Part shown: one piece after another, positions 55,055-57,580 of the stretch | Numbering within the stretch: the first letter of the stretch is position 1 | Layout: each line of letters begins with the position of its first letter | DNA from: Escherichia phage RCS47 | Sequence record: NC_042128.1 | Direction: 5' to 3' (one strand) | Length of the DNA stretch: 64,000 nt | Program-made: the position numbers and the translations under genes | Notes under the pieces: generated by a model | The model's database searches: none | The model's input: the letters and a program-made list of their open reading frames with translations, nothing else | What the model was told of the DNA's origin: nothing

Positions 55055-55684
55055 ATGAACATACCACCCAGGGCGACTAGGACTGTTTTTTGTGTCGGTA
55101 GCGGTCCGTCACTCACTCGTGAGGACTGTGCTGCTATAGAAAAAACTGGCTGTTCAATCATCGCGGTTAACAATTCCTGGCAGATGTTCGATGACATTTA
55201 TGCCTTATACGCCGGTGATTTGTCATGGTGGAAGCAATACGGATCCACCATACCGGGAGGGAAATTCCGCAAAGTGACAGCCAACCTGGCGGCGGCGAAA
55301 TCATTTTCGTTGGAGTACAGGCGATATTGTGGACCGGCGGAAGGGGTAAATAGCGGCGCGCAGGCTATCAGTCTGGCTGCTGAATCAGGGGCTGAAGTAG
55401 TTGTATTAGTCGGCTATGACTGTTCTCTGCAAAACGGCCTTCATTGGCATGGCGCGCACCCTCAAGCCCTACGGAATCCAACGCAGGTGTCTATTTCAAA
55501 ATGGCAACAGCAGTTCCTGGATACCCGCAAAAAACACGCAGATTTACATATTTTGAATGCAAGTAGGAGCAGTGCAATTCAATGTTTCCCAAGAATAAAT
55601 TTAGAGGCAGTGATCGCGTTATTATCGTCGGCAGTGGCCCAAGCGCCGCAAACTTTGTTGCGCCGCGCGGAGTGCCGATTATAG
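55055..55684 (+). CDS. Rossmann-like protein with GSGPS motif (DUF115/Maf-like putative glycosyltransferase), paralog 1
   Basis: FCVGSGPSL...IIAVN...VVLVGYD; 3' end overlaps paralog 2 by ~100 nt. Confidence 0.4.
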   Translation: MNIPPRATRTVFCVGSGPSLTREDCAAIEKTGCSIIAVNNSWQMFDDIYALYAGDLSWWKQYGSTIPGGKFRKVTANLAAAKSFSLEYRRYCGPAEGVNSGAQAISLAAESGAEVVVLVGYDCSLQNGLHWHGAHPQALRNPTQVSISKWQQQFLDTRKKHADLHILNASRSSAIQCFPRINLEAVIALLSSAVAQAPQTLLRRAECRL

Positions 55685-56208
55685 CGGTCAATGGGGCCAT
55701 CGACTGGCTGAACCGCGCTTCTTATTTTTTCACACTTGATCCATCGCCAGACAATATGCGGCGCGTTGGTCGTGGCCGCCGTCGCCGTGGTGTTTGTTAT
55801 TGCATGGCACTACCCGATGTTAAAGAACGTGAAGTCAGAGACGGCGTTCTGTGCTTCCGTCGTGTGGCTGAACGTGGCATGGAGCCAAAAAATATGAATT
55901 CTCCCGAGTGGTGGGCGTGGCGCTGGTCCGCACATTTCGGACTTTGCGAAGATGAGAATGAAATTGCCAGCGGCAATAGTGCATATGGCGCTCTGAACCT
56001 GGCTTTCCATATCGGATTCAAACATGTCGCCCTGGTGGGCGTTGACGCTACACAAGAACCACGCGTTCACTCCGGCGGCACGCCAAAAAATCTAAGTCAC
56101 CTGCCTTTGTTATTCCAGTCTGCGCGTGAACAGATTGACGTTGTTTCATGCGGGAAAATGGGAGGTATTCCGCAGATGACTCTTAAAGAATGGCTGAAGA
56201 ATACATGA
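55582..56208 (+). CDS. Rossmann-like protein with GSGPS motif, paralog 2
   Basis: [12 protein letters not shown]...IIAVNGAI...VALVGVD; AGGAG RBS. Confidence 0.45.
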
Positions 56209-56882
56209 TGGCACCCACAATTTATCACCGTATCGACGGTACCAAATACAGGAATGTCTGGGTTGTTGGTGATCTGCATGGTTGCTACACCAGACTGATG
56301 TCCGAACTCCATCGTGTGGATTTTGACCCGGCGCAGGATTTACTGATATCGGTCGGCGACCTTATCGATCGCGGTACTGAAAATGTCGAATGTCTGGAAC
56401 TATTGCAGATGCCCTGGTTCAGGGCAGTGATGGGGAACCATGAGCGGCTGATGATTGATGCGTTAAGTCCAGATGGCAACGTGAATAACTGGCTAATGAA
56501 TGGCGGACAATGGTTCTTCATGCTGGACACTGATCAGGAAATATTAGCCTGGGCGCTGGTGGAGCTGGTAAAGCGTCTGCCCTATATCATTGAGTTGAAC
56601 ACCGGGCAAGAAACTATCGTTATAGCCCATGCCGACTATCCGGATAATGAATACCAATTCGGTAAGGAGGTGCCGCTTTTCAACGTTGTCTGGGCGCGCG
56701 AGCGTATCAGTGATTCGATGGATGATATTGGTGGCGAAATTTCGGGCGCAGATCGTTTTATCTTTGGTCACACTCCGGTGAAAAGCCCGAAGACATTCTG
56801 GAATCAGCAGTATATCGACACTGGTGCCGTATTTTGCGGAAACCTGACATTGATGAAAGTGAAAGGTGATGGTGCAGCATGA
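56205..56882 (+). CDS. ppp: serine/threonine protein phosphatase (lambda PPase-like, calcineurin-type)
   Basis: GDLHG, GDLIDRG, GNHE motifs; high similarity to lambda phosphatase throughout, as I recall it. Confidence 0.8.
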
Positions 56883-57580
56883 AGATTGCTTTAGTTTTTC
56901 GCTCTGGTGGTGACTATAACGCTTCCGATGTGCAGTGGCTGGTTAATCAACTGCCAAAAGGCTATGAAATTATTTGCCTGACAGACCTGAAGCGTTTACA
57001 TGTACCTGGCGTCAAAGTTGTCCCATTGATCAACCAGTGGCAAAAGTGCCGTGGCTGGTGGGCGAAAATCGAGTTGTTCCGACCGGATATAACAGATGAT
57101 CTGTTCTATCTGGATTTGGACACAGTTATTGCCGGTGATATACGCCCAATCCTTGAGAATCCACCAACCAGCTTCACCATGCTTAGGGATTTTTACCATC
57201 CACAATATCGTGGTAGCGGTGCCCTGTGGATACCAAATAGTGTAAAAGCGCATATCTGGAGTTCATTCTGGCAAGATCCGGAAGGTTGGATTTCTCGTTG
57301 TGTCACTACTGAGTGCTGGGGTGATCAGGGGTTCTTACGGAAGGTTATGGGCGATGATACACCAGCATTTCAGGATCTGTATCCAGGATGGTTTGTAAGT
57401 TACAAGGCCGATGTTGTGGAACCTGGTTCAAAATATGCGAGCGCGCGTTACTCCAGGGGGAATGGGGCATTACCAAAGGACTGCCGAATAATCTTTTTCC
57501 ACGGCAAACCGCGACCTCGCGAAGTGTCAGAGGATTGGCTTCCCCTTATTAGCTCGTTTTTTGAGCGAGAATCAGAATAA
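56879..57580 (+). CDS. putative glycosyltransferase (DxD motif YLDLDTVI)
   Basis: 233-aa ORF overlapping ppp stop. Confidence 0.35.

Follow-up and report, generated by a model that had tools for sequence, protein, structure and literature searches.

What do three genes of phage P1, which have carried placeholder names since the genome was annotated in 2004, do for the phage? The question is raised by positions 55055-57580 of a stretch of 64,000 nucleotides (nt) of Escherichia phage RCS47 (NC_042128.1), the whole of which was analysed and is referred to here as the window. In this region a first-pass annotation, made from the letters alone, had seen a cluster of putative sugar-transfer enzymes flanking a lambda-type protein phosphatase. 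The DNA is that of a P1 phage: the segment 54000-59200 is 99.4% identical to P1 isolates by megablast (MH422554, 99.4%; reference NC_005856, 98.5%, full length), and 53850-59800 is colinear with the reference P1, with 97 substitutions and 0 indels. The four + strand open reading frames (ORFs) of the cluster are the annotated P1 genes pmgO, pmgP, ppp and pmgQ, named hdmB, hdmC, ppp and hdmD in P7. In the original annotation pmgO, pmgP and pmgQ are labelled “putative morphogenetic function”; in the RefSeq re-annotation pmgO is an “alpha-2,3-sialyltransferase” and pmgQ a “glycosyltransferase”, labels which repeat how PHROG describes phrog_4603 and phrog_1962, the families that PmgO and PmgQ match. 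The core idea of the first-pass annotation is therefore right, yet annotation-level labels already existed. Our literature searches found no functional study of pmgO/pmgP/pmgQ or of P7 hdmB/C/D. We propose that the three genes, without ppp, encode a late-expressed three-enzyme protein glycosylation system, probably acting on virion (head) proteins, a reading for and against which we see the balance as even. What our results would add to phage-encoded protein glycosylation is a form built on Maf-like chemistry, with O-P-Q as a conserved unit.

Folds and motifs of PmgO, PmgP and PmgQ

pmgO (55022..55684, + strand) encodes 220 amino acids (aa), or 209 aa from the in-frame ATG at 55055 that the first-pass annotation took as its start, and pmgP (55582..56208, +) encodes 208 aa. 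PmgO contains the motifs CVGSGPSLT, IIAVNNSW and LVGYDCS, PmgP contains LVGVDAT, and GSGPS, IIAVN and VG(Y/V)D are common to both. Pairwise BLASTP between the two proteins is marginal (E 0.003, N-terminal motif only). We therefore gathered and aligned homologs of each protein (A2, A3) and compared the resulting family profiles by hhalign, which gave a probability of 97.6% and an E value of 4.8e-12 over 164 columns. Judged from these profiles, PmgO and PmgP are genuine paralogs of long standing, with about 23% identity, as had been proposed from their common GSGPS...AVN...VG(Y/V)D core; PmgP is the more conserved of the two.

The family to which this pair belongs was approached through domain families, profiles and predicted structures. 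PF01973 (MptE-like / DUF115 / MAF_flag10) is matched at E <= 0.01 by 30 of 34 PmgO relatives, the best at 3.1e-8. When the PmgO and PmgP models were used in a fold search, the Maf glycosyltransferase 5mu5 came first (14.2 and 13.4, respectively), followed by MptE (8sd5; 11.5 and 12.6), an archaeal hydroxymethyl-dihydropterin pyrophosphokinase (HPPK), by the alpha-2,3-sialyltransferase Cst-I (2p56; 11.3 and 10.6), and then by SteA and thiamine pyrophosphokinases (TPKs); both models adopt the fold of the Maf central domain and MptE. A viral fold library returned matches solely to uncharacterised DUF115-like proteins. At the sequence level, single-sequence and single-family PmgO and PmgP profiles gave no meaningful match to solved structures, and NCBIfam holds no model for PmgO, PmgP or PmgQ. 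A merged PmgO and PmgP profile (A4) placed Maf, Cst-II, Cst-I and a lipo-oligosaccharide sialyltransferase at the top of the solved sequences, with weak E values of 0.02-0.9 and with alignments spanning the GxGPS loop and the (N/T)SG...LG...G(Y/I/V)D strand. Alignments to 1ro8 and 2wqq likewise cover the GT42 motifs (GxGPS loop, (T/N)SG, G(I/Y/V)D), with weak whole-sequence E values of 0.056-0.08. Invariant His residues follow the G(Y/V)D strand (H130/H132 in PmgO, in a lower-confidence loop of the model, and H173 in PmgP) and are possible counterparts of the catalytic His of GT42. Together, the predicted models and the alignments show that PmgO and PmgP share the fold and the motifs of Maf/GT42-type nucleotide-sugar transferases, in keeping with the DUF115/Maf-type likeness noted at first pass.

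The position of MptE in the fold search raises another possibility, namely that PmgO and PmgP act on small molecules, as ATP-dependent pyrophosphokinases or as some other enzyme of the MptE / thiamine pyrophosphokinase type. The similarity to these enzymes is at the level of the fold only: no HPPK or TPK is found among the matches of PmgO, PmgP or the merged profile at E <= 10, and Maf and the sialyltransferases head the list of the merged profile. In addition, the genes that constantly accompany the pair encode a GT8-like enzyme, methyltransferases and, often, a further GT-A-like protein; the surroundings contain no gene for folate or thiamine; and natural P-Q fusions exist (see below). We consider a pyrophosphokinase function distinctly unlikely.

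Compared with the Maf flagellin nonulosonic-acid O-glycosyltransferases (5mu5, MAF_flag10/PF01973), PmgO and PmgP correspond to the central domain only. Maf enzymes have three domains, about 600 aa, and either an acceptor-binding C-terminal domain or a GlfM partner (PMC11339370; bioRxiv 2023.12.03.569772). Their N-terminal and C-terminal helical/tetratricopeptide-repeat acceptor-binding domains are missing in PmgO and PmgP, and no GlfM-like partner is evident. Moreover, maf genes are linked to flagellin and nonulosonic-acid genes, whereas the neighbours of the genes studied here are phage structural, lysis, terminase or adhesin genes, and PmgO and PmgP differ in coming as a pair with a GT8-like enzyme. 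To the GT42 enzymes Cst-I and Cst-II (2p56, 1ro7), which act on lipo-oligosaccharide, PmgO and PmgP are only 12-16% identical. E. coli K-12 is not known to make CMP-sialic acid (CMP, cytidine monophosphate).

The third enzyme, PmgQ (56879..57580, +; 233 aa), carries the DxD motif YLDLDTV and matches phrog_1962 at 4.9e-128. As a single sequence it reached its solved relatives only at E 0.082. The PmgQ family profile (A1), by contrast, matched the Skp1 alpha-galactosyltransferase Gat1 (6mw5) at E 1.7e-6, glycogenin at 3.5e-3 and the family-8 enzyme 5gvv at 3.6e-3. D79-L80-D81 and H208 are invariant in 28 aligned sequences, and D79-L-D81 aligns with the DxD of all three relatives. Thus, PmgQ is by its profile and motifs a GT8-like (glycogenin-type) glycosyltransferase, which agrees with the first-pass view of the DxD protein as a sugar-transfer enzyme. 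Its alignments with GT8 enzymes run through the DxD and on into a C-terminal H..G..(K/R)P region; it differs from them in being shorter and in having no Pfam GT8 match. The invariant H208, within FHGxPRP, is a possible counterpart of the metal-binding His in the C-terminal H..G..KPW-type motif of GT8, and in the alignment as printed it is offset by 2 residues from that of glycogenin.

The pmgO/pmgP overlap

pmgO and pmgP overlap by exactly 103 nt, i.e. over the last ~34 pmgO codons, and the first-pass annotation had wondered whether a frameshift or a mis-called stop lay behind this. All 80 P1-like IMG/VR contigs, and 2 P1-like genome contigs besides, have the identical 103-nt overlap with its ATG start, making 82 independent assemblies. 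A Shine-Dalgarno sequence, AGGAG (55565..55569, +), can be read within the pmgO coding sequence 12 nt 5’ of the pmgP ATG. PmgP homologs align from residue 1 of PmgP, and the final ~25 residues of P1 PmgO lie outside the conserved core of the PmgO family. In diverged relatives the two genes overlap by less: by 49 nt in a Pantoea element, by 94 nt in a prophage of Citrobacter rodentium, by 40 nt in Chimaeribacter, and by 7-43 nt in the relatives from Brevundimonas and Zhongshania. The pmgP ATG is built on the codon of a conserved Cys in the C-terminal CFP motif of PmgO (55580-55590), an arrangement also seen in four other loci (L093, L094, L006 and L106; loci are numbered in this way throughout). 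A sequencing frameshift or mis-called stop is ruled out by the identity of the 103 nt in 82 assemblies and by the ribosome-binding sequence that pmgP has of its own. The overlap is genuine, and its being kept across lineages suggests translational coupling of pmgO and pmgP as the simple reading.

Could the overlap nevertheless serve as a programmed -1 frameshift site, giving some PmgO-PmgP fusion beside the separate products? The pmgP frame is -1 relative to that of pmgO, and within the overlap the pmgO frame contains two formal -1 slippery heptamers (T_TTC_CCA, 55585-55591; A_AAT_TTA, 55597-55603), so that a slip at either would join PmgO to PmgP; a natural O-P fusion also exists elsewhere (P0282). 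Against this, the chance of one such heptamer in an overlap this long is, by our estimate, ~13%, pmgP has its own AGGAG and ATG, the heptamers are not kept in L094 or L006, and pmgP of the Pseudomonas prophage L005 lies in another frame. We therefore rejected a conserved frameshift signal as a general feature, and regard programmed frameshifting in P1 as highly unlikely.

The suggestion of an artefact, and with it the notion that the cluster glycosylates phage DNA, comes from the first-pass annotation alone, with no tool result in its favour. Besides the assemblies and the 7-94 nt overlaps of diverged relatives, the differences from the reference P1 speak against an artefact, being mostly synonymous (12 nt changes giving 2 aa changes in pmgP, and 12 giving 4 in pmgQ). 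The Maf/GT42-like and GT8-like folds differ from those of known DNA glucosyltransferases, and no sugars are known on P1 DNA. Either version of this idea is barely credible. One of the replacements in PmgP may be recorded here: residue 160 (56059-56061) is Pro in the window and in the family consensus and Leu in the reference P1 (mod749::IS5 c1.100).

The O-P-Q cassette outside P1

We then asked whether the genes occur together outside P1. Two IMG/VR scans yielded mostly near-identical P1-like contigs, with 9 extra diverse loci gained. Among 28 non-P1 loci with a PmgP relative, a count which overstates independence because some loci are close relatives of one another, PmgQ was present in 28, PmgO in 23 and Ppp in none. 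The hosts include Bacteroidota and Gemmatimonadota. A PmgP-family profile search of 1.84 billion proteins (E <= 0.001) returned 534 cluster representatives, and the best 150 of these contain natural fusions in several arrangements: O-P (P0282), P-Q (P0293, P0356), Q-P (P0375) and Q-P-methyltransferase (P0340). The fusions, together with the O/P overlap kept across lineages, argue that PmgO, PmgP and PmgQ act in one pathway and probably in contact.

In nine of the loci (L003, L005, L007, L009, L010, L101, L102, L111 and L117) the cassette lies within the head-gene block, flanked by the capsid gene and by connector or head-closure genes. In Pseudomonas prophages (L005, L111) the order is capsid, O, P, Q, a further small GT-A-like gene and a head-closure gene; in an Ochrobactrum element (L007) it is capsid, connector, P, Q and head closure; and in Zhongshania (L101, L117) and Methylophilaceae (L102) it is terminase, portal, capsid, (O), P, Q. 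L009 has a capsid-protease, a cement protein, an O-like gene, a cupin, a methyltransferase, a P-like gene and Q, L010 has capsid, O, Q and connector, and L003 has a connector, O, two further genes including a methyltransferase, and head closure. In three other loci (L004, L006 and L008) the cassette sits between lysis genes and terminase. A fourth small gene often accompanies it, encoding 188-193 aa with an IDAD/LDVD motif and a sub-threshold match to PF03407, a nucleotide-diphospho-sugar transferase family; it was found in L004 (8874-9440), L005 (8254-8835), L100, L103, L104, L111, L114, L116 and L119, and P1 is without it.

Further genes embedded in the cassette encode S-adenosylmethionine-dependent methyltransferases (L003, 8056-8670; L008, 7573-8133; L009, 5037-6331, the last with the cupin), which suggests further modification of a glycan. 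In the head module of L003, two genes 5’ of the PmgO-like gene, we also observed a 304-aa collagen-like repeat protein (GEKGERGE...; 5415-6329), conceivably a glycosylation target.

A different setting was found in Pseudescherichia and a related Enterobacteriaceae metagenome-assembled genome (L095-L099, L109), where O, P and Q lie scattered on both strands among giant inverse-autotransporter adhesin genes of the intimin/invasin type. In L109 (Pseudescherichia sp. DALZFB010000011, 4366-10227), whose layout is the same in L095-L099 and which is bacterial chromosome, not phage, the three genes are interleaved with those for four Big_1 proteins, one of them an IAT_beta/Big_1/Invasin_D3 protein of 1166 aa. 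This arrangement is as would be expected of a dedicated adhesin-glycosylation locus, and the interleaving lends independent support to a protein acceptor. No earlier description of an O-P-Q unit with its fusions, recurrent capsid-gene adjacency and presence in an adhesin locus was found in searchable papers.

The gene that separates pmgP from pmgQ in P1 has another history. Ppp (56190..56882, +; 230 aa) scores 59.3 bits against PF00149 (cut-off 21.5), matches the NinI-like family phrog_246 at 5e-113 and NF008516 at 3.3e-81 (272 bits, under the 326-bit equivalog cut-off), and is 64% identical to the lambda Ser/Thr phosphatase according to the P1 annotation. By these matches it is unambiguously a lambda/NinI-type metallophosphoesterase. 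It was seen solely in P1-like loci, and in a 101.8-kb IMG/VR contig (L112) P abuts Q with no ppp between them. Phage D6 (L110, 3947-4639), in turn, has a ppp of 89.7% DNA identity in a run of small lambdoid nin-like genes, and the annotation around it shows neither O, P nor Q. These distributions show ppp to be an unrelated insertion specific to the P1 lineage and outside the cassette, a separate mobile gene that landed between pmgP and pmgQ. Ppp was accordingly rejected as a functional partner, adjacency in the P1 lineage being all that ties it to the sugar-transfer genes, and the phosphatase drops out of the cluster drawn by the first-pass annotation.

Candidate function, acceptor and regulation

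What, then, would the three proteins do? Maf/GT42-type enzymes transfer a CMP-activated ulosonic (keto-acid) sugar, and PmgO and PmgP, as stripped-down single-domain relatives, may do the same. P1 is not known to make such a donor, so the host must supply it; the only known CMP-ulosonic donor of E. coli K-12 is CMP-Kdo (Kdo, 3-deoxy-D-manno-oct-2-ulosonic acid), which would be the one used there. Maf enzymes expressed in E. coli do add Kdo to Ser/Thr from host CMP-Kdo (PMC11339370). PmgQ would add a hexose from a uridine diphosphate (UDP)-sugar by means of its DLD motif. O, P and Q most likely act together, possibly as a complex, and, working in the infected cell's cytoplasm, would assemble a short O-linked glycan on a protein. 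Since PmgO and PmgP are without the Maf acceptor-binding domains, something else would have to recognise the acceptor, and the O-P-Q assembly may itself do so. We infer the glycosyltransferase activity, the donors and the protein target; the most likely acceptor would be a virion (head) protein. In P1 the cassette lies directly upstream of pmgR, which is required for head completion (PMC9024508). Of the first-pass proposal that the phage glycosylates a macromolecule, the glycosylation is the best-supported reading because the DxD protein is GT8-like, while the phosphatase and a DNA target find no support.

A precedent may exist in the mycobacteriophages, for which Freeman et al. reportedly described in 2023 virion glycosylation with glycosyltransferase genes next to the capsid gene. 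The concept of phage virion glycosylation is also found in PMC11256854. The relatives of the P1 cassette in the nine head-block loci are placed similarly to these late mycobacteriophage genes beside the capsid gene; the cassette differs in its enzyme families, in its diderm hosts and, in P1, in its position away from the capsid gene.

The acceptor could instead be an envelope glycolipid, modified late in infection, such as the lipopolysaccharide (LPS) core or the enterobacterial common antigen, which could prevent progeny phage from binding to cell debris or shut out superinfecting phage. LPS-core hexosyltransferases are among the GT8 enzymes, LPS contains Kdo, and P1 uses the LPS core as its receptor; in L004, L006 and L008 the cassette occupies the lysis/terminase position typical of accessory genes, and the genes are dispensable in laboratory plating. 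Other results point away from the envelope. The solved relatives that the PmgQ profile scores are glycogenin, Gat1 and 5gvv, and LgtC, an LPS-type GT8 enzyme of solved structure, is absent from the matches of that profile at E <= 10. Nine loci have the cassette in the head-gene block, chromosomal copies lie among adhesin genes, and the best structural match is to Maf, which glycosylates proteins. Envelope modification appears unlikely on these grounds, though the LPS-core enzymes in GT8 and the three accessory-position loci speak for it.

Several observations weigh against the main reading. At the level of sequence families, PmgO and PmgP score 23.3 bits (E 5.9e-5) and 21.1 bits (E 3e-4) against PF01973, both missing its gathering cut-off of 34.6 bits, and PmgQ matches no Pfam family. 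Maf owes its acceptor specificity to N- and C-terminal domains, and these are absent from PmgO and PmgP. The P1 cassette is not beside the capsid gene, and the site between lysis and terminase genes taken in L004, L006 and L008 is a common one for accessory genes. No glycan or modified protein is reported for P1, nor is a glycosylated virion protein known for P1 or any cassette carrier; glycosylation goes unmentioned in a P1 virion proteomics paper, and PmgC and PmgG are the only Pmg proteins detected in the P1 virion proteome. An Ig-like domain family had 0 matches in ten large P1 proteins of the window. Deletion or CRISPR interference (CRISPRi) knockdown of pmgO, pmgP, ppp and pmgQ causes no plaquing defect, and single-gene P1 knockouts exist (PMC9024508). 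Normal plating of the knockouts suggests a function that is conditional or subtle. A hidden Markov model of HK97-type capsids found no match in the window.

In its widest form, the proposal is that of a minimal protein O-glycosylation machine, consisting of two Maf-like enzymes and one glycogenin-like enzyme that use CMP-Kdo and UDP-hexose, which would act on capsid or other virion proteins of P1 and of many unrelated tailed phages of diderm bacteria and whose trio would have been recruited for adhesins in Pseudescherichia. We offer this whole only tentatively and with low confidence. Were it true, phages of Gram-negative hosts would have their first described virion glycosylation system, and protein Kdo-ylation a natural example, in a phage that is a workhorse of E. 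coli genetics. It would extend particle glycosylation from mycobacteriophages, matter in phage therapy for the stability of particles and their recognition by antibodies, and provide very small Maf-like enzymes for protein glyco-engineering. If LPS were the target instead, the cassette would represent a new late-acting receptor-modification function.

The regulatory sites around the cassette are consistent with its use during lytic growth. The late promoter LPpmgL (53925..53943, +; transferred from the P1 GenBank annotation, 1 base different from the reference) lies upstream of pmgL and, as predicted from the annotation, can drive pmgL through the cassette. The C1 operator Oppp (Op83; 54865..54881, - strand; position from the P1 annotation, 1 base different) lies just 5’ of pmgN/pmgO, which implies that the cassette is repressed in the lysogen. 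C1 control and the upstream late promoter would together switch the cassette on in P1 lytic growth. At the downstream end of the cassette operon, the C1 operator OpmgRa with the promoter PpmgR (57582..57598, +) is the same in the window as in the reference and is followed by pmgR; the further C1 operators that the P1 GenBank annotation places directly after pmgQ are also kept in the window.

Between Op83 and pmgO lies pmgN, a small ORF (54883..55080, + in the ORF list; the P1 annotation starts it at window position 54925) which overlaps the start of pmgO and matches phrog_2350, a family of unknown function. In a CRISPRi screen pmgN was essential (plating efficiency about 1e-2), yet its deletion is reported as non-essential; pmgO to pmgQ were non-essential. 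The first-pass annotation had also enlisted a “GT-B-like” protein after ban (48089-49087), which is the P1 gene dbn. Its C-terminal third matches PF00534 (Glycos_transf_1) at 25.1 bits (E 1.5e-5), just short of the gathering score of 26.4, and the GT-B likeness is weak; its PHROG family is of unknown function, no significant relative was found among solved structures, and no link to the cassette was seen. Finally, pmgM (54280-54858) has a sub-threshold match to the VRR-NUC nuclease domain, and pap (59217-59723) matches PF25109, the phosphatase domain of polynucleotide kinase-phosphatase, at 3.4e-11, suggesting that the operon neighbourhood also has nucleic-acid end-processing functions.

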